Position numbers and translations under genes: made by a program. From positions 1-63,587 of the IMG/VR virus record IMGVR_UViG_3300031730_000004: 63,587 nucleotides of DNA; one strand, written 5' to 3'. Shown piece after piece: positions 22,276-48,276 of the stretch (position 1 is its first letter; each line of letters begins with the position of its first letter). The stretch is from a virus. The notes beneath the pieces are model-generated. The model worked only from the letters and a program-made list of their open reading frames with translations, did no database searches and had not been told where the DNA came from.

Positions 22276-24175
22276 AACATTCTCCCAGTGCCCCGTCGGC
22301 ATCGAGCGGCAAACCCGGCAACCAAGTGGGCGTCAGACGCATCTCGTCCAGACACAATTGCAGCATTTCCTCCTCACGCCCATCGCGAGGGATCAGCAAC
22401 AGTAGCTCATCGTAAGGCCAGTTCAAAGTACGAATGCCATATTTTTTCTTGATGCGGATCATGGCCTGCGAGACGATCACCGTCTCGATGCCTTCGCACA
22501 AATTCTGCAACAATTTCGACCCCCAGATGAAGCGCCAGCCGTCGCGCTTCTTGACACGCCAGCCGGTCTTCTGGATTTTGTCCTCGGGCTGCGCCATGTG
22601 GTACTCGATGGTGTCGTAGATCATCGGCCGGCCCTGAATATAAATCCGGTGATTCTCGATGTGCACGGGACCGTAATCAATGGGATCGCCGCCGGCCAAT
22701 CGCGCCAGCATCCGCTCGCATTGCGCCCAGTAGCCGGTGCCGCGGGCGCAGATCGATGGGTTGTCCTGTCGATACATGGCAACGAACCGGTCGGCCTCAT
22801 CCAGCGTCATGTCCACGCGCGGGCCGTAAGTGCCGGAGGCAGCGGTTGCCTTGAACTGCTTGCCGGACGCGCCGAAGCCGCACATCAAGCGGCCCTGCTT
22901 GCCCATGCCTCGCATCGCGGTCATCTCGTCGTAGCGAGGATCGCCGGTTTTCGGCTTATAGACCTCCATCTGGTAAAATTTCGAGGCGATATCGACGTAG
23001 GGATCCTCGCCGCGCCTGAACTTCTGGATCACCGGCTCATCAGCGCCACCCGCCAAGTAATGCGCGATCCGGCATTCGAGCTGCGACGAGTCTACCGGGG
23101 CCAGATAGTATCCCTGCGGCGCCTTGATTGCGCGTCGAATAGGTGAACCACGTTTAAAGTTGAGCCAGTTCGTTCCGCCGCCGCCAGACGGTCGTAGCGT
23201 TCCAGCTCCAGCGTAATGCAGGTAAACCGGAGCAGGTCCTCGACTAGCCACCCAGCCCAGGGTTTCGCTGCGGGTTTGCAGGAGGGTCGATTTCTCCGCG
23301 AGACGCGCTTCCGCCAGCGCACGAACGCGCGGGTTGTCGTGCTCACGCAGGTAATCCCGCATAAAGGGGTCGTTCTTGGCGATGGCTGGGATGTCACCGT
23401 TCTTGCCTTCCTTGTATTCGATCTCGATGCCCTCGGCTTCGAGTAACTCACAAAAGCGCTTGGATGATTGCAGGTCGCTGGACGCCACGCCGAGCGCTTC
23501 GTTGCCCTCGATCTTGCGCTTGGCTTCCGATTCCCACAGAGCGGCCAAGGTGCCGGTGTCGAGTTCAAGTACGGGATCGGTGAACATCTTGACGACCGAA
23601 TCGACGACATCGAGTTCGGAAACCGGAAAGCCGCGCTTCAGCAGCATCCCGAACAGCTTCCAGATCGACTCGACCTCGTCGCAGGCGCCCTCGCCGACCT
23701 GGCGCTGGACGTCCGGCGTCATCTGGTGCCAGTACTTGCCTTCGAACAAATTATATGGTGTGAATTTCTTTGATAGGCCGAACTGCTCCCGCACGCTGTC
23801 GAGGCTGACACTGATGTGATTGCCCAGCATCAGGCGGGCCATCGACAGCGTGCAGCCGGCCATCGCCGGGATCACTCCGTAGTGGTGCGAGAACGCCAGC
23901 TGATCGAACTGGGCGTGGTGGTTGACCATGAAGACGTCCGACCAGTCCTCGGTTTTCATGATGTGGTCGAGCTCGCGGGCGTCGTACCACACCGCAGAGG
24001 TGGCCGCCGACCACTTGAAGGCGCAGCCGTGGATCGACCAGCGAGGGTCGCGGACGTAGGACTCGGTGGTCATCGCCTTGATAGTGTAGGGGTTCGGTTC
24101 GCCATTGGGTTTATTGTCCCCGCGCAAATTTTTAGGGTCGTAGAAACACTCCAGGTCCGCGACAACGAGGCGCAT
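22265..24175 (-). CDS. Family A DNA polymerase with a 3'-5' exonuclease domain
   Basis: VADLECFYD (Exo I), NHHAQFDQLAF (Exo), VDSSQLECRIAHYLAG (motif A), RGMGKQGRLMCGFGASG (motif B) and PYDELLLLIP (motif C). Start MRLVV at 24175 chosen (TAATG overlap). Confidence 0.85.
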   Translation of the reverse strand: MRLVVADLECFYDPKNLRGDNKPNGEPNPYTIKAMTTESYVRDPRWSIHGCAFKWSAATSAVWYDARELDHIMKTEDWSDVFMVNHHAQFDQLAFSHHYGVIPAMAGCTLSMARLMLGNHISVSLDSVREQFGLSKKFTPYNLFEGKYWHQMTPDVQRQVGEGACDEVESIWKLFGMLLKRGFPVSELDVVDSVVKMFTDPVLELDTGTLAALWESEAKRKIEGNEALGVASSDLQSSKRFCELLEAEGIEIEYKEGKNGDIPAIAKNDPFMRDYLREHDNPRVRALAEARLAEKSTLLQTRSETLGWVASRGPAPVYLHYAGAGTLRPSGGGGTNWLNFKRGSPIRRAIKAPQGYYLAPVDSSQLECRIAHYLAGGADEPVIQKFRRGEDPYVDIASKFYQMEVYKPKTGDPRYDEMTAMRGMGKQGRLMCGFGASGKQFKATAASGTYGPRVDMTLDEADRFVAMYRQDNPSICARGTGYWAQCERMLARLAGGDPIDYGPVHIENHRIYIQGRPMIYDTIEYHMAQPEDKIQKTGWRVKKRDGWRFIWGSKLLQNLCEGIETVIVSQAMIRIKKKYGIRTLNWPYDELLLLIPRDGREEEMLQLCLDEMRLTPTWLPGLPLDADGALGECYEK

Positions 24176-24369
24176 TACACTTCCTTCGCTGTCAAGCACC
24201 CAACACACCAATCAATATCGCGCTGAGACATTTTTGGGTGTCGTTGGCGCGCAGCTTTGAGTTTGGCCGCATTCTTATCAGGCGCTTCCACAACGCCATA
24301 ATCTTCGACATCAGGGCGGCCTTCCATCCCTGTGGCAAGATAGTAATAGGTGACATGCCAGCGTTTCAT
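24175..24369 (-). CDS. Hypothetical protein (64 aa)
   Basis: ORF abutting the polymerase. Confidence 0.45.
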   Translation of the reverse strand: MKRWHVTYYYLATGMEGRPDVEDYGVVEAPDKNAAKLKAARQRHPKMSQRDIDWCVGCLTAKEV

Positions 24370-26988: not shown

Positions 26989-27026
26989 GAAACGGAAAAC
27001 CCCGCCAGCATGGGCGACTGGCGGGG
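26989..27026 (-). terminator. Rho-independent-type terminator for leftward transcription
   Basis: Perfect 9-bp stem CCCCGCCAG/CTGGCGGGG (27000-27008 and 27018-27026) with a 9-nt loop. On the minus strand it is followed by TTTTCCGTTTC. Confidence 0.55.
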
Positions 27027-27158
27027 CGATCACCGCTCGCGGGGACAAGGGGATGAACGCCGCGAGCCCCTTGATACCATCACCCGTAACATGAGGCAAG
27101 GGGCCCATGCCGTTGTTCATCAAGAGCTTGCCGCTGTCGTACGCAGTGGATTCGCCCC

Positions 27159-29369
27159 GTGCCAATTAAGGACTGGGCCCTTGCATACGCCAAAATAGGG
27201 TGGCCGGTTTTCCCCGTCACCAGATACAAAACGCCGTTCAAGGGCAGTCACGGGCACCTCGACGCAACCACGGACCCTGTCCAGATCGAAGCATGGTGGA
27301 CGGCGCGGCCAACGGCCAATATCGGTTTGGCTTGCGGTGACGTGGTCGTGATCGACGCTGATGGGGTTACCGCCGTCGCCCGCCTCAAGGCGATCGGCAC
27401 CCGCCACGGGGGCTTCCCGCGAACCGGGATGGTACGCACCGCACGCGGCATCCACCTCTATTTCAGAGCGCCCCCAGGCGTGCGGGTCGGAATGGGCGGC
27501 GAGCGACGCAAGCAAGCCGGCGACGACGGAATCGATTTCCGGGGTCACGGGGGCTGGGCGGTACTGCCCCCCTCGATCAATGCCAAGAACGGATTTGGGT
27601 GGACATGGATTTCACCCTTACCGCTCGCCGAGCTGCCAGATTGGCTTATGCCTGAAATAACGGGTCTGGCTGTTGCCCCACGCACTTCTTCTATCGGTCA
27701 TCTGGGCCCGCTACCAAAATATCTCGAAACCGTACAAATTCAACAAGATGTCGGTCGTGCCTTATCTGAAAACTTAAAGGCTGCGTACAGTCTTGCTGAA
27801 CATGCCAGACTTGAGTCAGCACTTAAAGCGACCTCTGCAAACGGCTATTACGACTGGGTTTCAGTTGGGATGGCGCTCAAGGATCTGGGGTGGGAGCGCT
27901 CCGACGGTACGGACCTCGGTTTTGTGATTTGGGATCAGTGGTCTCAGACTTGTCCCGAGAAGTACGCGCTACACGCTTGTGAAACCAAGTGGGCTTCGTT
28001 CAAACGGTCAGGAGTGTCGATCGGAACCGTCTACCATCTGGCGCGGCAGCATGGGTGGAATGGGGGCGCTCCAGCAATTGATCAGTTCACTGGAGCGCCT
28101 CACGCAGGGCAAGAGGCTCCTCGGCCAGCGCTTAACGGCCACGCCAGCGGGGCGCAAGCGCTCCCCGCGGCGTTCGGCGGGCAGCAGCCGATCTTTTTCC
28201 CGGACCGGACCGAGGAAGGCAAGACGCGGGCGACCATGCTCAACACCAAAGTGGCGATCGGCGGCCTCACGGTGGATTGCCGGTACGACCTGTTCCACAA
28301 CCGGATGCTGGTCGGCGGCGAGGTGATCTCGAAGTGGAGTTCCAGCGAGCTCTCGGACCACGTGGTGTCGATGCTGCGCGACATGATCCGCTACCGCTTC
28401 GGCTTCGATCCAGGCAAGCAGAACACCCAGGACGCCGCCGAAATACTGTGTCTGAACAGGATGTTCGATCCGATTCTTGATTATCTGGGTGCGCTTCAGT
28501 GGGACGGCCGACCCCGTCTCGACCAGTGGATGACGGCCTACCTCGGTGCTCCTGACACCGAGCTCAACCGCGCGGTCTCCCGCCTGTCCCTGATCGCCGC
28601 GGTGCGCCGCGTCCGCCACCCCGGAACCAAGTTCGATCAGATCATCGTGCTCGAGGGACCTCAAGGGCAAGGCAAGTCCGAGGCGATCGAGATCCTCGCT
28701 GGCGCCGACAACTTCTCGGACCAGAGCATTCTGGGGGTCGACGACCGCAAGCAGCAGGAACTGACCGAAGGGGTGTGGCTGTACGAGATCGGCGAGCTCA
28801 ACGGCATCAGGCGAACCGACATTGAGCACATCAAGGCGTTCGCCTCTCGCAAAACCGACCGCGCTAGGCCGGCCTATGGCCGCTACATGGTGCAGCAGCC
28901 GCGCCGCACCGTGTTCTTCGCCTCCTGCAACCGCAACGACTATCTGCAGGACGACACCGGCAACCGACGATTCTGGCCGGTCGAGGTGCGAACCATCGAT
29001 CTGGCCGGCCTGCGGCGCGATCGGGACCAGTTGTGGGCGGAAGCGGCTCACCGGGAAGGAACGGGTGAGTCGCACTATCTGCCCGAACGGCTGTGGCGCG
29101 TGGCCGGCGAGATCCAGGCCGAACGCATGGAGGCCGACGAGTGGGCGGACGCGATCGCCAATTACGTAGCGCTCAAAGAACTGACCAAGGTCAGCATCAT
29201 GCAGGTTCTGACCGACAACCAGTTTCTGCAGCTACAGCCCGGCCAAGTCGGCCAGAAAGAGCAAAGCCGCGCGGCGAGGGTGCTGCGCGGCCTTGGCTTC
29301 GAGCGCTATCGCGACGTCACGCCAGACAGCCACGGTCGTCGCCCGTGGCGCTACCGGAAGCCCGGTTAG
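27159..29369 (+). CDS. Bifunctional prim-pol / VirE-type primase-helicase (736 aa)
   Basis: N-terminal AKIGWPVFPV...GLACGDVVVIDADG (prim-pol fold with DxD). C-terminal VLEGPQGQGKS Walker A in a VirE/D5-like NTPase region. GTG start. Confidence 0.85.
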   Translation: MPIKDWALAYAKIGWPVFPVTRYKTPFKGSHGHLDATTDPVQIEAWWTARPTANIGLACGDVVVIDADGVTAVARLKAIGTRHGGFPRTGMVRTARGIHLYFRAPPGVRVGMGGERRKQAGDDGIDFRGHGGWAVLPPSINAKNGFGWTWISPLPLAELPDWLMPEITGLAVAPRTSSIGHLGPLPKYLETVQIQQDVGRALSENLKAAYSLAEHARLESALKATSANGYYDWVSVGMALKDLGWERSDGTDLGFVIWDQWSQTCPEKYALHACETKWASFKRSGVSIGTVYHLARQHGWNGGAPAIDQFTGAPHAGQEAPRPALNGHASGAQALPAAFGGQQPIFFPDRTEEGKTRATMLNTKVAIGGLTVDCRYDLFHNRMLVGGEVISKWSSSELSDHVVSMLRDMIRYRFGFDPGKQNTQDAAEILCLNRMFDPILDYLGALQWDGRPRLDQWMTAYLGAPDTELNRAVSRLSLIAAVRRVRHPGTKFDQIIVLEGPQGQGKSEAIEILAGADNFSDQSILGVDDRKQQELTEGVWLYEIGELNGIRRTDIEHIKAFASRKTDRARPAYGRYMVQQPRRTVFFASCNRNDYLQDDTGNRRFWPVEVRTIDLAGLRRDRDQLWAEAAHREGTGESHYLPERLWRVAGEIQAERMEADEWADAIANYVALKELTKVSIMQVLTDNQFLQLQPGQVGQKEQSRAARVLRGLGFERYRDVTPDSHGRRPWRYRKPG

Positions 29370-29689
29370 GGGGCGGGGGTCGGGGGAACCGATGCCTTCA
29401 GCGCGGTGGCGAGGTCGGTCAGCTTTGCCACGCTGGCCTCGATCGCCGGCGAGTGGTCGACCGGCGGGACGTTGGCGGCGAGGGCTGCCACCAGGGCGGC
29501 AATCTCGGCGGTGACGGCATCTGAAAGCGCTGAAACGGCGGCGTTGAGGTCGGCGAGGGCCTGAGCTTCGGTGTCGGCCATGTGATGGAATCCTTCGGTG
29601 ATGGCGGTTGCGATGAGGCGGGCGGCGTGATGGATAGCCTCGACCATGGCGTCGTTGTGGCGTTCGGCGGGATCGAATTTACCGGACAT
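29366..29689 (-). CDS. Hypothetical Ala-rich helical protein (107 aa)
   Basis: MSGKFDPAERHND... The stop codon overlaps the primase stop on the other strand (TTAG). Confidence 0.45.
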   Translation of the reverse strand: MSGKFDPAERHNDAMVEAIHHAARLIATAITEGFHHMADTEAQALADLNAAVSALSDAVTAEIAALVAALAANVPPVDHSPAIEASVAKLTDLATALKASVPPTPAP

Positions 29690-29727
29690 GCGGGTTCCAT
29701 GGGTGAGGCGGAGGACGATGTAGCACG

Positions 29728-29820
29728 CTATTTTCGAAATGTCACCCATCGGGGCATGAGGCGCCAGACCAACCATCCGAGGGCGGGGCCGGCGAGGAGG
29801 TGGGCGAGGAGGGGTTTCAC
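29728..29820 (-). CDS. Single-TM miniprotein (30 aa)
   Basis: Own translation: VKPLLAHLLAGPALGWLVWRLMPRWVTFRK. GTG in a GTGA overlap. Confidence 0.3.
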   Translation of the reverse strand: MKPLLAHLLAGPALGWLVWRLMPRWVTFRK

Positions 29821-30080
29821 TCGGACACCTCCACAGACTCGACTTCCTCGCAGGTTTCCCCGCGGTGGCTATAAAACAACCCCTGCTTGGCCCGTTCGGG
29901 CTTGGCTGTGCCCTCAATGACGAAGTTAGCGGCGGCGTGCAACATTCCATCGCGTGTACTGCGAAGCTCGCATGCTGCTTCAAACGTGCGACGGACCCAG
30001 TAGCGGCCGTGTGCGTAAAATGGCGAGCCCACGGACACATCCAGGAAGGCAATTTTTTTACCTGTTCGAATGATTTTCAT
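29817..30080 (-). CDS. Hypothetical protein (87 aa)
   Basis: MKIIRTGKKIAFLD...; ATGA overlap upstream. Confidence 0.45.
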   Translation of the reverse strand: MKIIRTGKKIAFLDVSVGSPFYAHGRYWVRRTFEAACELRSTRDGMLHAAANFVIEGTAKPERAKQGLFYSHRGETCEEVESVEVSE

Positions 30081-30310
30081 GCCCCGTTCCACTGATTGGC
30101 GAGCTCGCATGCCTTCCGCACGCCCTCGGCATAGGCTGCCATGGCCGCTTCGCGGGAAGGGAAGCAGCGGTCCCGGTAAACGTCGTTGATGCCGAGCTGC
30201 CAGGTGCGGCCGTTGCACCCGACCATGATGTCGGCCTCGCCGTGGGCGTGAACGAACAGGGAGGGCGAGTGTACCTCCCAGGTGAGGCCGTTGGATTCGA
30301 GGGTTTTCAT
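30077..30310 (-). CDS. Hypothetical protein (77 aa)
   Basis: Track ORF with operon packing. Confidence 0.5.
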   Translation of the reverse strand: MKTLESNGLTWEVHSPSLFVHAHGEADIMVGCNGRTWQLGINDVYRDRCFPSREAAMAAYAEGVRKACELANQWNGA

Positions 30311-30322
30311 TGTTTTTCCCCT

Positions 30323-30535
30323 TCAAAGTGTGACGCGAGCGGCGAGGCGCTCGCTGATGATGCCGTTCCGCGCGCAGGAGTCGACGAAGTCAACGAAAGT
30401 TGCGCGGGTGTCGGCCGGGTAGTCGCCGTTGCGGTATTTCTTGCGAACGGCGGTCGGGTGATTGCTCCAGAAATAGCGGCGGAAATCGTCCTGACTGGTG
30501 ATCGGGCGGGATGAAGCGTTGCGGTCGCGTTGCAT
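30323..30535 (-). CDS. Hypothetical protein (70 aa)
   Basis: Track ORF. Confidence 0.45.
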   Translation of the reverse strand: MQRDRNASSRPITSQDDFRRYFWSNHPTAVRKKYRNGDYPADTRATFVDFVDSCARNGIISERLAARVTL

Positions 30536-30544
30536 GGTGGTCCC

Positions 30545-31012
30545 CTATTTATAAACGGCAATCCCACGGGTGTAGCAGGAGCTGATGTCGCTTCCATCCC
30601 CGCCCTCGAGCGTGTTGAGATCACCCGACCGGAGGATATACAGCGCGCAGCCGCGCGGGTCGCCCTGGACGTAGGACGCAAAGCCGGGATAGCGGGCCAT
30701 GATCTGGGCCAAGCGCTTAAGGGCACCGCGCTCGCGGTCGGGCATAAGCGAGTAGGTCACGATATCCTTGCCCTCGCCATGGCGATAATGGTGATGTTCC
30801 AAGTAAGGCGGGCCATCGTCGTCATGGATAAAACCGGGCGTTACCTTTTTGTGGCCTCGAGCGATCGCCCATGATCCATAAGAGTTCCCATCGCCGCATT
30901 CCAGCTCATGCCAACGTTGCAAGGTCATGGAGATGCGGCGGAGCGCCGTGGCGTCTTCGTATGAGATGCCGGCGGCTTGCAGGTCGTCGATACAGGTTCG
31001 TTTGGCTAGCAT
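30545..31012 (-). CDS. Hypothetical protein (155 aa)
   Basis: Track ORF; GGGGAACCACC before the ATG. Confidence 0.5.
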   Translation of the reverse strand: MLAKRTCIDDLQAAGISYEDATALRRISMTLQRWHELECGDGNSYGSWAIARGHKKVTPGFIHDDDGPPYLEHHHYRHGEGKDIVTYSLMPDRERGALKRLAQIMARYPGFASYVQGDPRGCALYILRSGDLNTLEGGDGSDISSCYTRGIAVYK

Positions 31013-31063
31013 GGTGGTTCCCCTTGTTTGGTTCTGTTTTAGTACATTGTATTGGGCGAGGCG

Positions 31064-31165
31064 TCAAGACAGATAGATCAGTCCTGCCATGAGGTAACCA
31101 GCGAGGGCGCATAGTCCCAGGGAGGTGCCGACGGCGGTACAGCTGATGATTTCGGTGTGGGTCAC
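31064..31165 (-). CDS. Single-TM miniprotein (33 aa)
   Basis: Own translation: VTHTEIISCTAVGTSLGLCALAGYLMAGLIYLS. GTGA overlap. Confidence 0.3.
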   Translation of the reverse strand: MTHTEIISCTAVGTSLGLCALAGYLMAGLIYLS

Positions 31166-31473
31166 GATTGCGCCTCACTTGCGCGCTGGTAGGTATATTT
31201 GCCCAAACCGGTCAATTCATCGCGAGTTGGCGCGGCCTCGCCAATTGCCTTAAGGCAGCATGCCAGCAAGGGGCCGGTCATGCCGGCAACGATTGCGGCG
31301 CGCGGCAAAGCGCCTCTGGCAATGTCCTCGAGGATATCGTCCACCCGCATGAGGTACTGCCCCATGGCGTAGGGATTATAGCGCTTGCCGCGTGACTGGC
31401 GCACGTCGTATTGCGTGACCGCGTGCACCAAGGCGGACCGAACGGTACCGCCGAACATTCGGAATTGTGTCAT
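31162..31473 (-). CDS. Hypothetical protein (103 aa)
   Basis: MTQFRMFGGTV...; ATGA overlap upstream. Confidence 0.45.
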   Translation of the reverse strand: MTQFRMFGGTVRSALVHAVTQYDVRQSRGKRYNPYAMGQYLMRVDDILEDIARGALPRAAIVAGMTGPLLACCLKAIGEAAPTRDELTGLGKYTYQRASEAQS

Positions 31474-31781
31474 GGCTCGAATTCCATTGAATTGACGATG
31501 TGGTCCGGGTGTTTCGCCATGCCGCCGCAATCAAGAATGTACTGGATTTGCTGGCGGGCACGGGTTGCGTTCCTCTTGACCAGCTGTTCCATGAGGTAGT
31601 GGCAGGAATAGCCGTTCGGGTGAGTGGCAAGAAGCGACTCGCCGCGCGCGTGTTTGTGGAAAAGGCCATGCGTGTCGAGGTCGGCGATCGTGCGGACTTG
31701 CAGTATGCCGAATGGCGTTTCCACGGGCTGAAGAATGCTCTTGTCGCTTGGTGGGAATAGCGAGTCGCCAATGTGTCGCAT
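31470..31781 (-). CDS. Hypothetical protein (103 aa)
   Basis: Track ORF. Confidence 0.45.
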   Translation of the reverse strand: MRHIGDSLFPPSDKSILQPVETPFGILQVRTIADLDTHGLFHKHARGESLLATHPNGYSCHYLMEQLVKRNATRARQQIQYILDCGGMAKHPDHIVNSMEFEP

Positions 31782-31867
31782 CTGTCTTGCTCCAAGGTTT
31801 GAGGGACTTCTACTGCCTCAAGCCCGGTATCCTTTCGGAGCCGGGCACAAGGGAGGGTTTGGGCGGG

Positions 31868-32218
31868 CTATTTGCAGCCGTAGGCGCTGAAAGCGCGGCA
31901 AATGCGCATACGCGACGATTCGGTGAGGTGCTCGGGGAAGTGAAGGGAGCGCGATTCGTGGATTCCCTTCTCGATTTGCTCGCGCGTGCATTCGTTCCAG
32001 TTATGGAAGGTAAGCCACCGAACACCGCGCGCGGGGTAGCTGTCCGGCTCGCATGCGACGGCCCATGACGGCTCGCGATATTCCAAACCAAGGTGTACGG
32101 CATCGCTCAGCGAAACGTTCTCGATAACGAAACCGCGTTCGTCAGCCTCGCAAACGTCCTCGCCTTCGTCATGAGGGAAGTAGCGCTCGAAAGTGACTGA
32201 AAAGCCTTTGCGTGTCAT
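31868..32218 (-). CDS. Hypothetical protein (116 aa)
   Basis: GGAGGAACC RBS before the ATG. Confidence 0.5.
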   Translation of the reverse strand: MTRKGFSVTFERYFPHDEGEDVCEADERGFVIENVSLSDAVHLGLEYREPSWAVACEPDSYPARGVRWLTFHNWNECTREQIEKGIHESRSLHFPEHLTESSRMRICRAFSAYGCK

Positions 32219-32294
32219 TGGTCGGTTCCTCCGGGATAGTGGCTAGAATTGGTTTTAAAGGGGTCTGGGTGAGTTTTGGGTGGGAGGGGGCTAG

Positions 32295-32477
32295 TCAGGG
32301 GGGTAGCCCGGACCACATCGCCTTGAGGCTGGCGAGCTCCGCATAGCGTTCTGGCCATGTCGAGCGCAGCGTGGCCCAATCCATGCCAAAGGTGAGGCCG
32401 CCCCGCATGTCGCGGAAACACTGGTTGATGATTGCGTTGTAGCGGCGCAGTGCGCCTCGCTTGGTCCTGATAGTCAT
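32295..32477 (-). CDS. Hypothetical protein (60 aa); first gene of the leftward early operon
   Basis: GAGAGGGGAATTGAA before ATG 32477. Confidence 0.5.
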   Translation of the reverse strand: MTIRTKRGALRRYNAIINQCFRDMRGGLTFGMDWATLRSTWPERYAELASLKAMWSGLPP

Positions 32478-32506
32478 TTCAATTCCCCTCTCGTTGGTGT
32501 CCGGTC

Positions 32507-32535
32507 AATATACATTGTATCAGAGGCGGGGCAAG
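32507..32535 (-). promoter_or_regulatory. Candidate leftward early promoter with an overlapping palindromic operator
   Basis: Minus strand reads CTTGCC-N17-TATATT (-35 at 32530-32535, -10 at 32507-32512). The palindrome ATACATTGTAT at 32510-32520 overlaps the -10. Confidence 0.45.
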
Positions 32536-32571
32536 GGGATTCTCGCTTGGCGCCATCACAAGAACGTGAGT

Positions 32572-32850
32572 GGGACACTGGGCCATAGAGTGGGCCACCG
32601 TAACCCATTGATATTGGCTGGTTGTCCCACCTGTCCCAGTATGTCCCACTTGATTCTATATTGGTTTGTAGAAAGGGAGATAGGGACAGGTGGGGTATAC
32701 AGTGTATAGGGACAGTGGGGACAGGGGAATATAGGGGACAATAGGGAATCAGTGGGCCAAGGTGGGACAAGTGGGACAGCGTTGATATCATTGAGGTTTT
32801 TAGAATGACCAAGTGGGACCGAAGTGGGACGGACCGGGACATAGCGGGAC
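32572..32850. repeat. Iteron array: 14 exact GGGAC/GTCCC cores (mostly within GTGGGACA) plus about 5 one-mismatch copies; putative replication origin or multi-site protein-binding platform
   Basis: Three inverted copies TGTCCCA at 32623, 32632 and 32642 with 9-10 bp spacing. Then an AT-rich spacer at 32649-32680. Then forward copies at 32683, 32709, 32718, 32735, 32764, 32773, 32815, 32826, 32836 and 32846. One more forward copy at 32572. Confidence 0.75.
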
Positions 32851-32900
32851 AAATCGAGATAAAAGTCACTTTTTAGTGAGGCATTGTATTATTTTAGTGT

Positions 32901-32929
32901 TTGACAAGCCTAAATATACATTGTATCAC
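32901..32929 (+). promoter_or_regulatory. Candidate rightward early promoter with an overlapping palindromic operator
   Basis: TTGACA (32901-32906)-N17-TATCAC (32924-32929). The palindrome ATACATTGTAT at 32916-32926 overlaps the spacer and -10. The 16-mer AATATACATTGTATCA is identical to 32507-32522. Confidence 0.5.
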
Positions 32930-32991
32930 TATTTTCGAGCGTAAATTTAGGAACGGAAGTAGAACAAAATAGCGCGATTTAGGAGGATACA

Positions 32992-33087
32992 ATGTCTTTA
33001 GAGCATGCAATCCTGGTTATCATGATGGCTTTAGGGCTTATCCCGGATCTTAGTGCGTGGTATGCTATTGGGGATGACCTGGTTTAA
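32992..33087 (+). CDS. Single-TM miniprotein (31 aa); first ORF of the rightward block
   Basis: AGGAGG lies 5 nt before the ATG. Own translation: MSLEHAILVIMMALGLIPDLSAWYAIGDDLV. Confidence 0.4.
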   Translation: MSLEHAILVIMMALGLIPDLSAWYAIGDDLV

Positions 33088-33131
33088 GGTGACTGGTTAG
33101 TTTCAACAGCCCAAATGGCGGAGGTAGAGAG

Positions 33132-33380
33132 ATGCATGTTCAGGGGCGTAAGGTTTTCGTGACGCGATACGAGGTTGCGGCGTTCAATCGGGGATGGCCG
33201 TGCAGTAAACTGCGGTCGACGCGCAGCTATTGGTTTGAATTTGATTCGCGCGGTGATCTTGCCGACACGGACTTGCCGGAAAGCGATGACGGATCGGAGG
33301 CGAGCGCAATGGCCGACGATTGCAAGAAATACTTGGTTGAGGGTGAGGTGCCTGATTGGGCGGCTTGCACGACTGACTGA
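33132..33380 (+). CDS. Hypothetical acidic protein (82 aa)
   Basis: GGAGGTAGAGAG before the ATG. Confidence 0.5.
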   Translation: MHVQGRKVFVTRYEVAAFNRGWPCSKLRSTRSYWFEFDSRGDLADTDLPESDDGSEASAMADDCKKYLVEGEVPDWAACTTD

Positions 33381-33433
33381 CCGGTTAGCGCTTCGCTTTC
33401 CGGACGAGATGGTTTCAACAGGAGGGGAATGAG

Positions 33434-33640
33434 ATGGTGACGAACAGTGAGTATTGGGAAGGCAAAACGCTGGCATTGATCTATCGCTTAAACGCGCAGA
33501 AGGCTGCAGTGCAGGCGGGATGGCGCATTGCCGGCTTGATGGGTGCCGTGCAGGCATTTGAACACGTCGACTTTCCGGGAGGACACGTAGGGACGTGGGA
33601 GTCGCTTTGTGCAGAGTATGAGATCAAGGTGACCGGTTAG
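33434..33640 (+). CDS. Hypothetical protein (68 aa)
   Basis: AGGAGGGGAATGAG before the ATG. Confidence 0.5.
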   Translation: MVTNSEYWEGKTLALIYRLNAQKAAVQAGWRIAGLMGAVQAFEHVDFPGGHVGTWESLCAEYEIKVTG

Positions 33641-34002
33641 CGGCGGGCTTTCCATTTCGCCAGATTGAGCGCTCCGGCTTTCAGGCCGGGGCGTTCTTTT
33701 GTTTGGCGCAAGCGATTCGCGCGTTCGAGGCGCTCCCGTGCATCACGTTCGATCTTGTCTGCTAATAGCTGCAGTGCCCACGCCGGCGTGCCGCGTCGTC
33801 CTGAACGCCAGTTGAGCGCTACTGTGCGGTGAACGCGACCGTCTAGGAGCTCGACCAGATCCTTGCCCGTTGCACCTGGTCGGAGAGTGTTGGCTAACTC
33901 GAAAAGCGGTGTAGCGGGTTTCAAATCGAAATCTCCTCTGTGGCACAGAGTAGCGATATCTTCCTGCATGCATATGCATGGAGATTCCTGATCGCAAGCC
34001 AT
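33637..34002 (-). CDS. Isolated antisense gene (121 aa), possible DNA-binding regulator
   Basis: GGAGGTGAGGGG RBS. Basic C-terminus. The segment GKDLVELLDGRVHRTVALNWRSGRRGTPAWALQLL is HTH-like. The stop overlaps the stop of 33434..33640. Confidence 0.4.
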   Translation of the reverse strand: MACDQESPCICMQEDIATLCHRGDFDLKPATPLFELANTLRPGATGKDLVELLDGRVHRTVALNWRSGRRGTPAWALQLLADKIERDARERLERANRLRQTKERPGLKAGALNLAKWKARR

Positions 34003-34331
34003 TAACCCCTCACCTCCGACCGGTCACCGCGTCCCCTTGACGACGCACCCAGCACCGCCAGCCATATCCAACTCTTGAGTTAGATACGATAGACCCCATG
34101 TAAATAGATGAATGCTTAGTGTTTACATAGGCTTAGCTGTAGTTTCTAACGTGCAGCCTAGCACCTTGTCGAAATGGAACTCGGCCTCGAGCATGGTAAC
34201 GAAATAGTGATAGTCACGCGACCGTGATAGTTCCCGCGAAGCGATGGCCCTCGGCGAAATAAAATCTTGGGTAGGCCGGGTCGTCCGTCCCCCAAAAATT
34301 TTCCAAGTTACTATTGCAATTTGCAACAGAC

Positions 34332-34354
34332 GATTGTACTACACGAATATCGAC
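34332..34354 (+). promoter_or_regulatory. Copy of the ATTGTACTACAC..TATCGAC motif (variant), upstream of the RNA ligase
   Basis: gattgtactacacgaatatcgac. TTGCAA lies 17 nt upstream of TACTAC. Confidence 0.4.
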
Positions 34355-34450
34355 CGTTCGCCGCCACCCACTATCCACTCGACCTACGCCGCTCACCGGT
34401 GCGTTAAAACCGCAAAACGCTGAAAACCAACCTCTCGGAGCATCCAACGC

Positions 34451-34999
34451 ATGTCCGACCTTCCTGCCTTCGAACCCTTCGGCAAGATCCCCCGCCTGGC
34501 GCGGGAGTGTGTCGTGACCGAGAAGATCGACGGGACGAACGCCAGCGTGCTGATCACCGAGGACGGCGATGTCTTTGCCGCCTCCCGATCGCAATGGATC
34601 ACGCCCGAAGCGGACAATTACGGCTTCGCCCGCTGGGTCGTCGGCAACAAGGACGACCTTTTGCGGCTCGGCCCCGGCCGCCACTTCGGCGAGTGGTGGG
34701 GGCAGGGAATCCAGCGCAATTACTCCTTGCGGGAGAAGCGCTTCTCGCTGTTCAATGTCAGCAAGTGGAGCGACGGCGAGGTGCGCCCGGCCTGCTGCTC
34801 GGTCGTCCCCGTGCTGACCACCGATATGTTCGACGCTCCTGGCTTGTCGCACCGGATACTGAAACAACTTCGCGAAGAAGGCAGCCGCGCGTCTCCCGGA
34901 TTCATGAAGCCTGAGGGAATCGTCATTTTCCACATCGCCGCCAACCTCCTGTTCAAGAAGACCCTGGAACGGGACGAGGAGTGGAAGAGTAAGAAGTAG
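34451..34999 (+). CDS. Minimal ATP-dependent RNA ligase-like nucleotidyltransferase (182 aa)
   Basis: TEKIDGTN (motif I KxDG), GEWWG (motif III), PEGIVIF (motif IV) and LFKKT (motif V). Confidence 0.7.
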   Translation: MSDLPAFEPFGKIPRLARECVVTEKIDGTNASVLITEDGDVFAASRSQWITPEADNYGFARWVVGNKDDLLRLGPGRHFGEWWGQGIQRNYSLREKRFSLFNVSKWSDGEVRPACCSVVPVLTTDMFDAPGLSHRILKQLREEGSRASPGFMKPEGIVIFHIAANLLFKKTLERDEEWKSKK

Positions 35000-35041: not shown

Positions 35042-35287
35042 ATGGCCAACGTCTACGAAGGCACCCCCGACGGCCGTCAGGCCGAGACTGCAATTCCCGT
35101 CTCTCGCTTCCGCCCGCGCTACCGCGCCCTCACCGACGAGGAGAAACTCCTGCACGACGCCCTCAAGGACAAGGCCGCCGAGCTGGAAGTCCTGTTCCAG
35201 AAGGTCAAGCCCGGCAGGTACAACTCCCTCGCCGTCACCTCCCTGGAACAGGCGATCATGTGGATCGTCAAGGAGTTGACGTCGTGA
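35042..35287 (+). CDS. Small helical protein (81 aa) resembling the N4-gp49/Sf6-gp66 (Acb2/Vs.4-like) family
   Basis: YRALTDEEKLLHDALKDKAAELEVLF...RYNSLAVTSLEQAIMWIVKELT matches, from memory, the Y..L..EEK...IK and SLA.TKLEEA.MW..K blocks of that family. Confidence 0.4.
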   Translation: MANVYEGTPDGRQAETAIPVSRFRPRYRALTDEEKLLHDALKDKAAELEVLFQKVKPGRYNSLAVTSLEQAIMWIVKELTS

Positions 35288-39069: not shown

Positions 39070-39560
39070 AGCGCAACGTTATAGCGCTTGTTCGCTTGAA
39101 AGAGGTTTTGCGTTACGATCCGGATACAGGATTGTTTTGGTGGATTATTAAACGCAACGGTACGATTACTGGTAAGCCTGCAGGCGTTCTCGGAAAATAC
39201 GTGCGAATCAAGATTGACGGAAAATCGTATTCGGCGTCGTGCATGGCGTGGTTGTGGATGACGGGTGAATGGCCAACACAAGAAGTCGACCACAAAGATT
39301 TGAACAAGCACAATAACAAATGGGAAAATCTTCGAGCAGCAACTCGTTCGCAAAACACGACGAACATACCGCGAAGGAAAAGTGGGTCGAATAAATACAA
39401 AGGAGTTACTCGGCACAAGCATTCAGGTAAGTGGTCGGTGTGCATCACAATAGATGGAAAGCAGAGAACGCTTGGACGTTTTCACGATCAAGAGAAGGCG
39501 GCGGCCGCTTACGCGGAAGCAGCTAAAAAGCACTATGGCGAATTTGCGAGGCTTAAATGA
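39066..39560 (+). CDS. HNH homing endonuclease with an AP2 DNA-binding domain
   Basis: VDHKDLNKHNNKWENLRAATRSQN (HNH_3-like) and YKGVTRHKHSGKWSVCITIDGKQRTLGRFHDQEKAAAAY (AP2); low-GC patch. Confidence 0.8.
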   Translation: MKRNVIALVRLKEVLRYDPDTGLFWWIIKRNGTITGKPAGVLGKYVRIKIDGKSYSASCMAWLWMTGEWPTQEVDHKDLNKHNNKWENLRAATRSQNTTNIPRRKSGSNKYKGVTRHKHSGKWSVCITIDGKQRTLGRFHDQEKAAAAYAEAAKKHYGEFARLK

Positions 39561-40564
39561 AGATCGGCGTTTGTACCACGACTATAAGGAAACCTGAAGC
39601 GTTGAAAGTACTGCGCAAATTTGCAGGACACAACGTGAAGTTTTTTATCGCGTTGGACACAAATTCGGACTTCAAAGCCATTTCGACGTGGGGAGACCTC
39701 GACGACCAGTTTTGTTGGATGACGCCGGATTGGCAGAAAAAATTCAAGTGCTCCGAAGCGCTCGGATGGCGAACATTGAGCCGCAGGAACACGGCTTTTC
39801 TCGCTGCCCTCGAATGGGGGTGCGATGCAATCTATTCTCACGACGATGACAACCTCGTAACCGAGGTAACTTTTTTCGAGCAGATCGCCATTAACTTCGA
39901 ACCGTTCAACGGCATCAAGGTCACCGGTACCAACGGCTGGTTCGATCCAGGCAGTCTGCTGATCCCGGCCACCCGCCATCGCGGTTTCCCGCACGGCAAG
40001 CCCGTCAGCAAGACCGCTCACCCCGTCACCAACGCCAGGGTAGGTGTCGCCGCTGGCCTCGTCACCGGCGACCCCGACATCGACGCCACGACCCGCATGG
40101 AGCATCGCCCCGACATCGGCAGCGTTCACATCCTGGGCTCGACCGGCGTGGTCGTCGACCCGCACACCTGGACCGTCTTCAACAGCCAGAACACTGCGGT
40201 GATCCGCGAGCTGATGCCGGCGTGGTTCATGATGCCCGGGGTCGGCCGCCACGACGACATATATGCTTCTCTCATTGTTCAGCGCGTCGCCCGCGAGCGG
40301 GATCTCCACGTCCATTTCGGCCCGCCCTTCACCTACCAGCAGCGCAACGCGCATGATCTGGTCAAGGACCTGCGCGCCGAGATCGATGGGATGGAGAACG
40401 TCTGCAAGCTGGCGACCCTGCTCGACCACATCGTTCTGCCGGGCAAGAGCGTGATCGAGGACACCTGCATCATCTACTCGGCGCTTCGCTACTGCGATTT
40501 CCTGCCGATCGAATCGGCGAATGCGGCGCTGCTGTGGATCGAGGATGTGGGGAGTGTGCTTTGA
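39557..40564 (+). CDS. GT75 / reversibly-glycosylated-polypeptide (UDP-arabinopyranose mutase or STELLO)-like enzyme
   Basis: VCTTTIRKPE, SHDDDNL (DxD), RHRGFPHG, GDPDIDATT, FNSQNTAVIREL and GRHDDIYAS align by eye with the RGP-family blocks IPTIR, TIDDDCF, VRGYPFS, IPDYDAPTQ, MNLAFDREL and GRYDDMWAG. Confidence 0.6.
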   Translation: MKIGVCTTTIRKPEALKVLRKFAGHNVKFFIALDTNSDFKAISTWGDLDDQFCWMTPDWQKKFKCSEALGWRTLSRRNTAFLAALEWGCDAIYSHDDDNLVTEVTFFEQIAINFEPFNGIKVTGTNGWFDPGSLLIPATRHRGFPHGKPVSKTAHPVTNARVGVAAGLVTGDPDIDATTRMEHRPDIGSVHILGSTGVVVDPHTWTVFNSQNTAVIRELMPAWFMMPGVGRHDDIYASLIVQRVARERDLHVHFGPPFTYQQRNAHDLVKDLRAEIDGMENVCKLATLLDHIVLPGKSVIEDTCIIYSALRYCDFLPIESANAALLWIEDVGSVL

Positions 40565-40719
40565 TCGTGAAGCTGGTGCTAGGTACGAAATCTGATCCAG
40601 GGCCGAAGGTAATTGTCGAGTCGAACATCAAGTTTACTGAAGTCACGGCGTTTGATAATTGGCTGAAAGTCCAGAAGCTGGCGCGCGACTGGCTCAGGAT
40701 GGAGTTGGACAAGGGATGA
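40561..40719 (+). CDS. Hypothetical small protein (~52 aa, TTG or GTG start)
   Basis: TTGA overlap with the upstream stop; GGGGAG lies 6 nt upstream. Confidence 0.3.
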   Translation: MIVKLVLGTKSDPGPKVIVESNIKFTEVTAFDNWLKVQKLARDWLRMELDKG

Positions 40720-41984
40720 AACTCGCCATCGGCTTCTCAACCAAGGACCAGGTCGGCCTCACCCGGCATACCTTGCTGCGAGTTCTTCGGCACGACGATT
40801 TTGACTTGCTATGGGCCGATGGGTCGCGCACGTCGGAAGGGCAATCCTTTTTTACTCGTAACGCCGTCGGCCGTACGATTGCGTACCCGGAGGTTTACGG
40901 CGGCGCCGACGCGGCGATCGCATTCAAATTGAGCACGGCCTTGGCCTCGTCCGCCAACTACACCCACATCGGCCTGCTCGAGAACGACGTCCTCCTCGAC
41001 GAGGACTGGTACGAGCCGACAATTGAACTGTTCGAGAAGGGGAAGCAAGATGGCCTCGCTGTCGGTGCGGTTAGCGCACGATCTTATGTGGACCGTGTAC
41101 TGGTGCAGCGGGATGGCTATGCCGTTATGCACAATGTGGGCGCCGGCATGGCCATCTTTACGAGGGAGGCCGCCGAGATCGTCCTTCGTTCCTTTCGCAC
41201 GGCATGGTGGCCCGCTAATCGTCTTATTTTTGCTCAGTTATCTGGCATCGATCTAGCCACCTACGCCGCCTTCCGCGGCAACGACCAGTGGGTGACGACC
41301 GACTGGGGCTGGGAAGCCCAACTCGCCAGCCATGGATTGGCCACCCTGGCTCTGACCCCGGCGAAGTGCCAGATGATCGGACAGAACCCGCCTTTGGAGC
41401 AGCAAGGCTTGCATCTCACGGCTCTGAACATTGTTTCGGGGCGTTGGACAGGAGATTCTGGGAAGTGGGATGATCCCGAAGTTGATTTTCAGCGCTATGT
41501 CAACGTCCTCGACGCCCTTCGCTATGACGGTGCCCGAACCGACCTCCCCGGAATCATCCACCGCGACGGCGCCGGCATGCTGTTTTTCCCGCATCAACTC
41601 GGCTATTTCGCAGGGGGTCCCGCATGGCTAGGAACTTTGGAATTGCAATGGAACCAGGGTTTCGGCCCGTTCGCCTACCGCGCTGGTCCGGGCGGCGCTA
41701 TTCTCGCCTTGCACTTGTCTGGTTCCTCCTCGTTCCTCGTCAGTGGCGGTGTTGCCGGCGCCCGCGTCGCGATCAAGGACACCCGCTCTGGATTTAACTT
41801 CGCCCCTATGCTGCCACCCTCTCACGAGCCTGCCTCGCTGAACGTCCCGGGCGGCCCGATCCCGCGCAGAATTGTGCTTGAGATGGATGAGGGCGCGGTG
41901 TTTTATGGCGTCCAGACCGCCGATCCCCAGATGCTGGATGCGACGTTCAGGTTTGACTGGACACAATTACCAAAGGCTGTGTGA
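40716..41984 (+). CDS. GT-A fold (GT2-like) glycosyltransferase (422 aa)
   Basis: MKLAIGFSTKD...LLWADGSRTSEG...GGADAAIAFKL...IGLLENDVLLDEDW resembles a GT2 Rossmann-like core with a DxD-type acidic motif. ATGA overlap. Confidence 0.45.
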   Translation: MKLAIGFSTKDQVGLTRHTLLRVLRHDDFDLLWADGSRTSEGQSFFTRNAVGRTIAYPEVYGGADAAIAFKLSTALASSANYTHIGLLENDVLLDEDWYEPTIELFEKGKQDGLAVGAVSARSYVDRVLVQRDGYAVMHNVGAGMAIFTREAAEIVLRSFRTAWWPANRLIFAQLSGIDLATYAAFRGNDQWVTTDWGWEAQLASHGLATLALTPAKCQMIGQNPPLEQQGLHLTALNIVSGRWTGDSGKWDDPEVDFQRYVNVLDALRYDGARTDLPGIIHRDGAGMLFFPHQLGYFAGGPAWLGTLELQWNQGFGPFAYRAGPGGAILALHLSGSSSFLVSGGVAGARVAIKDTRSGFNFAPMLPPSHEPASLNVPGGPIPRRIVLEMDEGAVFYGVQTADPQMLDATFRFDWTQLPKAV

Positions 41985-42985
41985 TGAAAAAGTGTCTAAT
42001 TCTCGGCGCCGCCGGATTTTTGGCTGGCCACCTCGAACACCGCCTCCGCGCCGAAGGTCACTTCGTCGTCAGCGTCGCCCGCAAACCCCCTCCCTTCCGG
42101 CCGTCGGTGGCCAATGAGTACAATATCCTGGATCTTACGAATACTGCCGATTTCCATCATCATTTTTTCCGTCATCACTTTGATGAATGCTACCAGCTGG
42201 CAGGCGAGGTTGGCGGTCTTGGGTTCATTGGTGATAGGAATCACGATATCGAGATTCTCACCAATTCCTTGAAAATAAACCTCCACACCCTCGAAGCGAT
42301 CCACAAGACAGGTGCATGCAACCGCATCTTCTTCGCCTCTTCCCAGTGCGTCTATCCCGACAACCGCTTCGAGATCGACCCCTTTGCCGCCGAGCGCATC
42401 GCCCCGCCGCCCAAGCCCTGGGCCGAGACCGACGCCCAGTTCGAGAACAACTTCGCGTTTGCCAAGGAGAAACTGTATGCCGAGTCTCTGTACCTCGCCT
42501 TTTCCCGAAATCACGGAATTGACGTTCGGATCGGACGGCTCGGTAACACTTACGGTCCGTATTGCACATGGGACAGTGCGCGGGCTAAAGCTCCAGCCGC
42601 AATCTGCCGCCGAGTTGCGCAGTCACCTTATGCCGGCGTGGTTGAGCTTTGGGGAGACGGGAAGGCCAGCCGCTCCTTCACCTACGTCGATGACGCCGTC
42701 GAAGGCATGATCCGGCTGATGGCTTCGCCCCACCAGATGCCGGTCAACATCGCTCATTGCGAGACGACGACGATCGCCGAGTTGTTCGAGACCGTATGCC
42801 AGGTCGCCGGCAAGGTGCTGGCGTGGAAGCCGTCGGTCGGCCCCGAGGGCGTCCGCCACCGTGGCTCCGACAATACCCGGATCAAGCAGCTTCTGAACTG
42901 GGAGCCTTCGATTTCGCTGGAAGAAGGATTGCGCCAGACGTATCCCTGGATTAGGGATCAAGCCTTGACAAAGGCCGATACATAG
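41981..42985 (+). CDS. NAD-dependent extended SDR, GDP-mannose 3,5-epimerase-like
   Basis: ILGAAGFLAGHL (GxxGxxG), FFASSQCVYPD, RIGRLGNTYGPYCTWDSARAKAPAAICRR, ELWGDGKASRSFTYVDD and VGPEGVRHRGSDN match GME hallmark blocks recalled from plant GME. Confidence 0.8.
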   Translation: MMKKCLILGAAGFLAGHLEHRLRAEGHFVVSVARKPPPFRPSVANEYNILDLTNTADFHHHFFRHHFDECYQLAGEVGGLGFIGDRNHDIEILTNSLKINLHTLEAIHKTGACNRIFFASSQCVYPDNRFEIDPFAAERIAPPPKPWAETDAQFENNFAFAKEKLYAESLYLAFSRNHGIDVRIGRLGNTYGPYCTWDSARAKAPAAICRRVAQSPYAGVVELWGDGKASRSFTYVDDAVEGMIRLMASPHQMPVNIAHCETTTIAELFETVCQVAGKVLAWKPSVGPEGVRHRGSDNTRIKQLLNWEPSISLEEGLRQTYPWIRDQALTKADT

Positions 42986-43020: not shown

Positions 43021-43716
43021 ATGATTCTCGGATACATCAGGTGCTCGACGGCAGACCAGGCCAAGGACGATCGCTCGTCCCTGCAGGTTCAGACTGACAT
43101 CATCGAGGGCTACGCCCGCACCCGCGGCGCCGACCGGTTCGGCGTCCAGATTTTCACCGATGCCGGTGTATCCGGCGCGGTCAAGCTTGCCGCGCGCCCC
43201 GCAGGCAGCGATCTCCTTGCCGCCTTAGCCCCGGGCGACACGGTGATTGCGAGCAAGCTTGACCGCATGTTTCGCTCCGCCTCCGATGCCCTCAACATGC
43301 TGGAGCTGTTCAAGGCGAAGGGCGTCCACCTCGTCCTGTTCGACATGGGCGTCGATCCGGTCACCGGCGATGGCACCGCCCGCCTTTTGTTCATCATCCT
43401 GGCCGCAGTCGCTGACATGGAGCGCGTCCGGATCAAGGAGCGCACCGCCGAGGGCAGGAAGGCGAAGAAGGCGAGGGGCGGGGTGATCGGCAAGGTCCCG
43501 TTCGGTTACCGGAAGGTCGGCGAGGGGCGGGCGGCGGTGTTGGAGAGGGATGAACGAGAGATAGCTGCTGCCGCGAGAATGCGGCGTCTGTATCAGGATC
43601 GCTACGCGCTTCCGCAGATTGCCGAGTTGCTGTCGAACGATGGATACGTGTCTCGCACCGGTAAGCCCTACACGCCGATGGCGATCCGGCGGGTGGTGAC
43701 GGAGGCGAGACAATGA
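43021..43716 (+). CDS. Serine recombinase (231 aa): resolvase catalytic domain plus a short recombinase-type C-terminal domain
   Basis: MILGYIRCSTADQ (Ser nucleophile), SKLDRMFRS, ERVRIKERTAEG, then GKVPFGYRK...IAELLSNDGYVSRTGKPYTPMAIRRVV. Confidence 0.85.
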   Translation: MILGYIRCSTADQAKDDRSSLQVQTDIIEGYARTRGADRFGVQIFTDAGVSGAVKLAARPAGSDLLAALAPGDTVIASKLDRMFRSASDALNMLELFKAKGVHLVLFDMGVDPVTGDGTARLLFIILAAVADMERVRIKERTAEGRKAKKARGGVIGKVPFGYRKVGEGRAAVLERDEREIAAAARMRRLYQDRYALPQIAELLSNDGYVSRTGKPYTPMAIRRVVTEARQ

Positions 43717-48244: not shown

Positions 48245-48268
48245 CCTGACCGGGAATTGCCCCTATCT
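48241..48268 (+). promoter_or_regulatory. Candidate late promoter immediately before terL
   Basis: TTGACC-N16-CTATCT resembles the alphaproteobacterial CTTGAC-N16/17-CTATAT consensus (recalled). The -10 ends 8 nt before ATG 48277. Confidence 0.35.
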
Positions 48269-48276
48269 TGCCGGCC

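Follow-up and report, generated by a model that had tools for sequence, protein, structure and literature searches.

The 63,587-nucleotide stretch analysed here, referred to below as the window, comprises positions 1 to 63,587 of the IMG/VR virus record IMGVR_UViG_3300031730_000004 and carries a dense array of short repeats (iterons) with the core GGGAC at positions 32572 to 32850. Here we report that this array is, as judged from the sequences, very likely the replication origin of the phage, of the P4-like type known from the Rep and PriRep proteins of the Staphylococcus aureus pathogenicity islands (SaPIs), and that its predicted reader is the phage's own primase-helicase. The observations that carry this conclusion are the array itself, the concerted change of its repeat word among relatives, its position next to the primase gene in distant relatives, the similarity of the helicase domain to a SaPI Rep and the covariation of a C-terminal wing with the repeat word.

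The primase-helicase is the proposed binder because distant relatives have the array joined to the 3' end of their primase gene, because the helicase domain matches the self-loading SaPI Rep/PriRep initiators, and because the C-terminal wing co-varies with the repeat word independently of the tree of the helicase core. An earlier sequence-only reading of this DNA had proposed an origin bound by the Prim-Pol/VirE primase, and this comparative evidence of gene linkage, SaPI Rep match and wing covariation lends support to that proposal.

Iteron array and its layout among relatives

Exact GGGAC/GTCCC cores occur 14 times in the 279 bp from 32572 to 32850, 11 in forward and 3 in inverted orientation (32572+, 32624-, 32633-, 32643-, 32683+, 32709+, 32718+, 32735+, 32764+, 32773+, 32815+, 32826+, 32836+ and 32846+). 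The remaining 63.3 kb of the window hold 108 such cores, or 1.7 per kb, which corresponds to 0.48 expected per 279 bp and to a Poisson probability of about 2e-16 for 14 or more. When 122 sites were placed randomly, the largest cluster ever obtained had 7 members, and mononucleotide shuffles of the array region gave a mean of 0.66 cores and a maximum of 6. The iteron consensus in the window is aAGTGGGACAg, with a word of 7-8 nt, (A/G)GTGGGAC(A), and seven of the window's 10 GTGGGAC heptamers fall inside the array region. No comparable k-mer cluster was found elsewhere in the 63.6-kb window, the next-best 6-mer cluster consisting of 6 copies of an unrelated word.

The array begins with left forward iterons (32571..32597, plus strand), namely TGGGACA at 32571 and degenerate TGGGCCA copies at 32579 and 32591, and relatives carry two to three forward copies at the homologous position. 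The inverted iterons (32623..32649, minus strand) read TGTCCCA on the top strand at 32623, 32632 and 32642, with spacings of 9 and 10 bp; a phased inverted triple occupies the same position in nearly all relatives examined, whatever their word, and is replaced by two copies at a few loci. Further to the right, a forward pair (32763..32779, plus strand; TGGGACA at 32763 and 32772, cores 9 bp apart) aligns column-wise with the pairs of other-word iterons in loci L099, L061, L009 and L034. The last group consists of phased forward iterons (32814..32851, plus strand), which read TGGGACC, TGGGACG, CGGGACA and CGGGACA at 32814, 32825, 32835 and 32845 and are spaced by 11, 10 and 10 bp. The sequence-only reading had described a dense array of 14 cores, three inverted copies 9-10 bp apart, phased forward copies, several one-mismatch copies and an AT-rich stretch after the inverted triple. 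Counts and spacings agree with it, TGGGCCA is present three times (at 32579, 32591 and 32753), and the AT-rich stretch is borne out by the duplex stability of 32653-32682.

Between the inverted triple and the forward pair lie AT-rich island 1 and a purine/G-run block. AT-rich island 1 (32649..32682) holds a conserved TTCTATAT box and is a putative DNA-unwinding element, its 30-mer at 32653-32682 having a duplex free energy (dG) of -33.5, at about the 99.9th percentile of low duplex stability (-33.8) among the 30-mers of the window. The TT(A)TTCTATATA box is kept in L008, L010 and L017, with comparable boxes in, among others, L035. The purine/G-run block (32682..32760, plus strand) contains four (A/G)GGGACA copies at 32682, 32708, 32717 and 32734, an AGGGAAT and the TGGGCCA at 32753; purines make up a fraction of 0.72-0.75, and G outnumbers C by 16-18 to 1-5 per 40 nt. 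Similar G-run blocks follow the AT box in L005, L009-L011, L017, L018, L035 and L057, where they do not contain the iteron word. Because the block is also present in relatives without iterons there, the four central copies (cores at 32683, 32709, 32718 and 32735), which read A/G-GGGACA rather than TGGGACA, may not all be true binding sites. The forward pair is followed by the conserved non-iteron core CGTTGATATC and then by AT-rich island 2 (32780..32813, plus strand); the 30-mer at 32784-32813 has a dG of -34.4. Here CGTTGATA is kept in four of the seven aligned relatives and L009 differs by one base (TGTTGATA). A promoter scan of the plus strand gave GGGACA-16-TATCAT with a preceding TG at 32764-32791, and the core at 32780..32813 may represent either a site for a host factor or a -10-like element extended by TG.

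Relatives were recovered by protein-anchored searches of IMG/VR, metagenomes and public assemblies, which yielded about 20 syntenic regions. A megablast search of GenBank phages with positions 31500-34500 returned no match, and terminase and Pol A have only distant GenBank phage relatives, at no more than 37% identity. No GGGAC clusters were found in the relatives, and this absence led to the finding that each of them carries its own word instead. The word is AGTGGTGAC (also given as GTGGTGAC) in L005/L034, CATGGTGACA (also given as ATGGTGACA) in L009, TATGGTGAC (also given as ATGGTGAC) in L030, GGTGACA in L033 and L018, GGTCACA in L021, CGGAACA in L008/L031, GGCACA in L010, GGAACAG/GGCACA in L011, GGTAGGAA in L017, TGGGAACA in L061 and GG(G)ACA in L069, so that GGTGACA, GGAACA, GGTAACA and GGTCACA are among the words used.

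The layout shared by these regions, in the orientation of the window, starts with two to three forward copies, three inverted copies phased at 9-10 bp, a TT(A)TTCTATATA-like AT box and a purine/G-run block of 60-100 bp; it continues with forward copies, a small core (CGTTGATAT or a variant), two to four more forward copies and a rightward promoter. In the alignment, copies at homologous positions switch word in concert while the CGTTGATA core stays almost constant. Such a concerted change of all copies is expected of the cognate site for a fast-evolving, phage-encoded, sequence-specific protein. Conservation in related phages, which the sequence-only reading had named as a check, is found for the layout, in about 20 contigs, and not for the word GGGAC. 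As a separate observation, L008 carries about 13 tandem 15-bp repeats (GCGCCACCAAGGTCC) at 8900-9100, inside a leftward early open reading frame (ORF), where they code for a short peptide repeat; these are absent from the window.

Primase-helicase gene and its C-terminal wing

The predicted initiator is a Prim-Pol/PriCT_2/VapE-like primase-helicase of 736 amino acids encoded at 27159..29369 on the plus strand. Pfam searches identified the Prim-Pol (6.6e-38), PriCT_2 (1.1e-16) and VapE-like (1.7e-69) domains, and residues 400-609 match PDB 7PDS, the SaPI1 Rep1-DNA complex, with an E-value of 6.5e-33. No other initiator family, and no ParA/ParB/ParM/ParR or integrase-type family, was detected by Pfam among the roughly 70 ORFs scanned. 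The gene is the only plus-strand gene in the minus-strand left arm, which also holds Pol A (22265-24211) and, on the minus strand, an SNF2 helicase and a PD-(D/E)XK nuclease. It is separated from the divergent Pol A operon by a gap of about 150 bp (27011-27159), and at its stop codon (29366-29369) it meets the leftward early operon in convergent orientation, an arrangement that would fit an insertion of this operon between the primase gene and its origin.

In the distant homologs of the primase, the stop codon of the primase-helicase gene marks the start of the strongest 5-mer cluster to be found within 7 kb. Loci with this arrangement are L035, L036/L037, L045, L047, L050, L054-L057, L060, L065, L067, L099, L061, L131 and L132, some of which are bacterial-genome contigs. 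Where the sequence of these clusters was read, it showed forward copies, an inverted triple, an AT-rich island and again forward copies, as in the window. Two loci, L072 and L084, seemed to be exceptions, but in these the sequence 3' of the primase gene reads as opposite-strand coding, and the contigs stop before the syntenic region. No array is present directly after the primase gene in the window (29369-29800). The array has the same orientation relative to the primase gene in the window and in the distant homologs, and for this reason the simplest history would be an insertion of the 3.1-kb leftward early operon (29366-32477) between gene and origin in the window lineage. As a result of this insertion, the origin would now lie between divergent early promoters. 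The distance between origin and gene is a feature of location rather than of mechanism.

The C-terminal region of the primase-helicase (29187..29366, plus strand) is predicted to form a winged helix, with the wing ERYRDVTPDSHGRRPWRY, and is the predicted reader of the iterons. An AlphaFold2 model of the last 137 residues, built with 60 homologs, showed an H-H-H-beta-beta winged-helix topology and had a mean predicted local distance difference test score (pLDDT) of 87, rising to 94-97 in the terminal helix-helix-beta-hairpin unit. The modelled recognition helix is KEQSRAARVLRGL, and the modelled wing is ERYR-DVTPDSHGRRP-WRYR. A Foldseek search of the PDB with this model returned nearly exclusively winged-helix DNA binders (DnaD-N, PadR, SarA, MecI/BlaI, Fur, FoxO and TFIIE), none of them significant. 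The model thereby supports a winged-helix fold class for the primase C-terminus, and this support does not extend to homology with the SaPI winged-helix domain.

The first strand of the wing and the iteron word are paired without exception at 13 distinct loci in the close family. Wings of the form RYQ(K/R)R or RFQKR go with GGTGAC(A) (L029, L034, L033, L036, L009, L030 and L099), RYRKR, KYRKR and KHKKR with GGAACA (L061, L011 and L031), and RYHKR with GGnCAC (L038), and the wing RYRD..GRRPWRY, which has a longer loop, is found with GGGACA in the window and GG(G)ACA in L069. The pairing does not follow the helicase core. Two metagenomic contigs, L061 and L099, share 98% identity in this core but only 55% in the tail, and their arrays have different words between identical flanks; the array of L061 (1245-1541) uses GGGAACA and that of L099 (1725-2010) uses GGTGACA, a natural specificity-swap experiment. 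The window is closest in the core to L009 (82%), from which it differs in the tail (48% identity) and in the word; it is more distant in the core from L069 (75%), with which it has the tail type (69% identity) and a similar word in common. The covariation of wing and iteron, independent of the helicase-core tree, is strong sequence evidence of a circumstantial kind and not proof. If it reflects recognition, changing the wing ERYRDVTPDSHGRRPWRY to VRYQKRTAEGKRIWRY would shift the preference from GGGACA to GGTGACA.

From these observations, and by analogy with the SaPI Reps described in PMC9371898, we infer how binding, melting, loading and priming could proceed at the array. The C-terminal winged helix of the 736-residue protein would recognise the 7-8-nt iterons (A/G)GTGGGAC(A), which are opposed around an AT island: the inverted triple (32623-32649) lies to its left, and to its right are the forward copies from 32682 onwards. 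Helicase hexamers would assemble on both flanks, the AT-rich island (32649-32682) would melt, and the helicase would load itself. Primers for the phage Pol A would then be made by the Prim-Pol domain, and the other phased forward copies, at 32763-32851, may recruit or stack further protomers.

Early promoters, operators and alternative explanations

The array sits in a 515-bp non-coding gap (32478-32991) that separates divergent early gene sets. To the left, small orphan genes occupy 29366-32477 on the minus strand. To the right, on the plus strand, a 31-residue ORF at 32992 comes first, followed by an RNA ligase, an Acb2/Tad1-like protein and sugar-modifying enzymes and, further on, a serine recombinase, a Dam methylase, and the terminase and structural genes. 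A leftward early promoter-like site (32507..32534, minus strand; TTGCCC-16-TATATT) flanks the iterons outside the array and carries the palindromic operator AATATACATTGTATCA at 32507-32522. The rightward early promoter-like site (32901..32929, plus strand), whose hexamers TTGACA-17-TATCAC were read from the sequence, carries a second exact operator copy at 32913-32928; this 16-nt palindromic operator-like repeat overlaps the -10 region of the promoter-like site on both sides. A TCAC-N6-GTGA palindrome lies at 32866-32879, and operator half-sites were noted at 32882-32889 and 32986-32995. Both palindrome types recur in relatives, and TTGACA directly follows the array in L099 and L061. The AT-rich block at 32855-32990, which the sequence-only reading had counted as part of the origin signature, is present, and it reads as a rightward promoter, operator and leader region. 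Together, the operators and palindromes around the origin look like a classical repressor/operator switch, and the array lies between both early promoters yet is distinct from their operators.

Several observations weigh against an origin read by the primase-helicase. The array starts 3.2 kb past the primase stop codon (29369), where SaPIs and the distant relatives have the two adjacent, and its position between divergent early promoters makes a transcriptional role possible, alone or in addition. Three conserved non-iteron elements inside the array, the TTCTATATA box, the G-run block and the CGTTGATAT core, have no explanation in this reading; they could represent an ori-internal promoter or R-loop, a host-factor site, or mere unwinding-element composition. 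At the protein level, the best Foldseek E-value was 0.095, with 7pds_B at rank 31 (E-value 0.57), and a sequence profile of the primase C-terminal region against the PDB gave chance matches only. The covariation draws on some 13 loci, which may represent 4-5 independent switches. The GC-skew profile of the window tracks the direction of transcription and was of no help in locating an origin.

In a further reading, which we regard as rather unlikely, the origin would be mechanistically coupled to the early transcriptional switch, as an iteron-dependent and transcription-primed hybrid serving a self-loading primase-helicase. The TTCTATATA box, the TG-extended -10-like CGTTGATAT core or both would be ori-internal promoters. 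The G-run block (about 32660-32760), with G on the non-template strand during rightward transcription, would form a persistent R-loop that opens or primes the origin, and a repressor on the flanking ATACAWTGTAT operators would gate helicase loading. R-loops assist the opening or priming of origins in ColE1 and T4.

We give little credence to the explanation that the array is instead a multi-site operator or nucleoprotein switch for the divergent early promoters, bound by p121 or another small early protein. The array does lie between the leftward (P_L) and rightward (P_R) promoters with palindromic operators on both sides, and p121, a 121-residue helix-turn-helix (HTH)-like protein encoded at 33637-34002 on the minus strand, against the rightward operon, is tightly linked to it in about 20 relatives. 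The p121 family, which has the motif W..GRR..P.WA, amounts to about 20 clusters among 5.8 billion proteins, and in the relatives its gene is never more than about 1.5 kb from the array. The putative recognition helix of p121, however, shows no correspondence with the word: four different helices occur with GGTGAC arrays, near-identical helices occur with GGTGACA, GGTCACA and GGACA arrays, and arrays of the same layout are found in loci without detectable p121 (L036, L050, L054, L055 and L057). We rejected p121 as the iteron binder on the grounds of this missing covariation; judging from the sequences, it is probably an operator-binding repressor acting on the conserved palindromes. Another small ORF, of 77-78 amino acids with the motif Y-P-(F/L)..M.(V/I)G(Q/D), lies between the leftward operator and the array in L005 (2866-3096), L008 (6707-6940) and L026 (about 9030-9270). 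Its 77-residue form adjoins the array in these relatives, which would fit a local regulator, but the window lacks a homolog of the ORF, and Pfam gave no family above threshold for it; its absence from the window led us to reject it as the binder. Where the array comes after the primase gene, as in the distant relatives, there is a single promoter beside it, and the conserved palindromes ATACAWTGTAT and TCAC-N6-GTGA already account for operators of the repressor type. Among ten flanking proteins searched against Pfam and PHROGs, only the RNA ligase (34451-34999) could be assigned; the other nine, all small early proteins, gave no hit and provided no candidate binder.

The sequence-only reading had named a partition site and a packaging (pac) site as alternatives, and both are disfavoured by the present data. 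A centromere-like partition site of a plasmid-prophage is very unlikely: short phased repeats in both orientations resemble parS/parC, and a small serine recombinase and repressor-type operators are compatible with a temperate lifestyle, but the Pfam scan of the roughly 70 ORFs contained no ParA/ParB/ParM/ParR-type family, across the relatives the array stays with the primase-helicase gene and changes together with the C-terminal wing of its product, and an AT-rich centre between opposed repeats is typical of an origin. That the array is a pac-type terminase recognition site is highly improbable. Pac sites normally lie in or beside the small terminase gene, whereas the large terminase subunit (48268-50196) is here 15 kb away, and the relatives, some bacterial-genome contigs among them, have the array joined to their primase gene and not to a terminase gene, with a word that co-varies with the primase C-terminus; in favour of packaging, some pac sites are repeated short motifs bound by the small terminase, and related assemblies of similar length start at different points, as fits circular or permuted, headful-packaged genomes. 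Finally, a structured or protein-sponge RNA of the CsrA/RsmA type, whose GGA motif is contained in GGGACA and for which a promoter-like site inside the array could provide expression, is scarcely credible, given that the words GGTGAC, GGTCAC and GGTAAC of the relatives lack GGA with the architecture unchanged, that copies occur on both strands, and that Rfam gave sub-threshold chance matches only. It was rejected for the missing GGA and the lack of any hit above the Rfam threshold.

Among the neighbouring genes, one of the early right operon encodes an 81-residue protein (35042-35287, plus strand) that contains an Acb2/Tad1 hairpin domain (E-value 2.3e-14), is also found in relatives L010-L019, and is, from its domain match, likely a signal sponge against the cyclic-oligonucleotide-based antiphage signalling system (CBASS) or Thoeris. 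A glycosyltransferase-like gene together with an NAD-dependent epimerase/dehydratase (39557-42985), a small serine recombinase with a resolvase domain (43021-43716) and, just upstream of the terminase, a Dam-type N6-adenine methyltransferase (47744-48244) were also observed.

Comparison with known origins and significance

SaPI origins have been described by Ubeda et al. (2007, 2012), as cited in PMC9371898, and structures are available as PDB 7PDS and 7OLA. According to PMC9371898, the SaPI Reps are self-loading initiator helicases whose C-terminal winged-helix domain recognises iterons of 5-6 nt, 6-12 of which lie immediately downstream of rep; the centre of the origin is AT-rich, with at least two iterons per side in opposite directions, and in SaPI5 pri and rep are fused (PriRep5). 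The window shares with these systems a VapE-like initiator helicase, with its 7PDS match over residues 400-609, the joining of primase and helicase in one polypeptide as in PriRep5, and short iterons opposed around an AT-rich centre, here with three minus-strand copies on the left and forward copies on the right. A C-terminal winged helix as iteron reader is predicted from the model in the window and has been shown for SaPIs, and a cognate specificity between protein C-terminus and iterons would be common to both. In this phage's distant relatives the array is also located at the stop codon of the gene, as in SaPIs (e.g. L035, L036, L060, L099, L061 and L050-L057). The window differs in that its origin lies 3.2 kb from the gene, behind a leftward early operon and between divergent early promoters, in that it has 13-17 copies instead of 6-12 and a longer word of 7-8 nt, and in its conserved G-run/purine block and CGTTGATAT core, which are not described for SaPIs. 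It is furthermore a 63.6-kb phage with its own Pol A and not a satellite, and homologous primase genes occur outside the staphylococci, in metagenome-assembled genome contigs labelled Rhizobiales and Terracidiphilus and in Hyphomicrobiales genomes.

The likeness to P4 lies in a primase-helicase with a C-terminal origin-binding domain and in direct and inverted iterons near AT-rich DNA. The P4 alpha protein is a multifunctional primase-helicase with such a domain, its iterons are octamers, direct and inverted, beside AT-rich DNA, and P4 replication requires two cis sites, ori and crr. In contrast, the 63.6-kb window has a single iteron cluster, its primase domain is a Prim-Pol of the archaeo-eukaryotic primase type and different from that of alpha, and PDB searches with the primase-helicase gave no P4 alpha sequence match. 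As in lambdoid origins, phased iterons adjoin an unwinding region that is AT-rich and strand-asymmetric, an early promoter is near, and cognate initiator and iteron specificities swap as modules among relatives. In lambda itself the iterons are inside the initiator gene, and the O protein is not a helicase and needs P and the host DnaB, whereas the array of the window is non-coding and its initiator is a predicted self-loading primase-helicase. The sequence-only reading had stated that no described system uses this repeat; this stands for the word itself and not for the kind of origin, which is already described in the SaPI and P4 origins. What is new here is the iteron word and the position of the array, 3.2 kb from the initiator gene and between divergent early promoters.

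The analysis provides a concrete candidate pair of origin and initiator for an uncultured lineage of soil and peat phages of about 60-65 kb that has no close GenBank phage relative. It would be of use for annotation and for replicon building, and it leaves the understanding of origins unchanged. Beyond the staphylococcal islands, the SaPI-style arrangement is suggested for phage contigs from the environment as well as for genome contigs of alphaproteobacteria and acidobacteria. Within this family, the natural swaps of wing and word would amount to a small recognition code and may explain why every relative has its own word.

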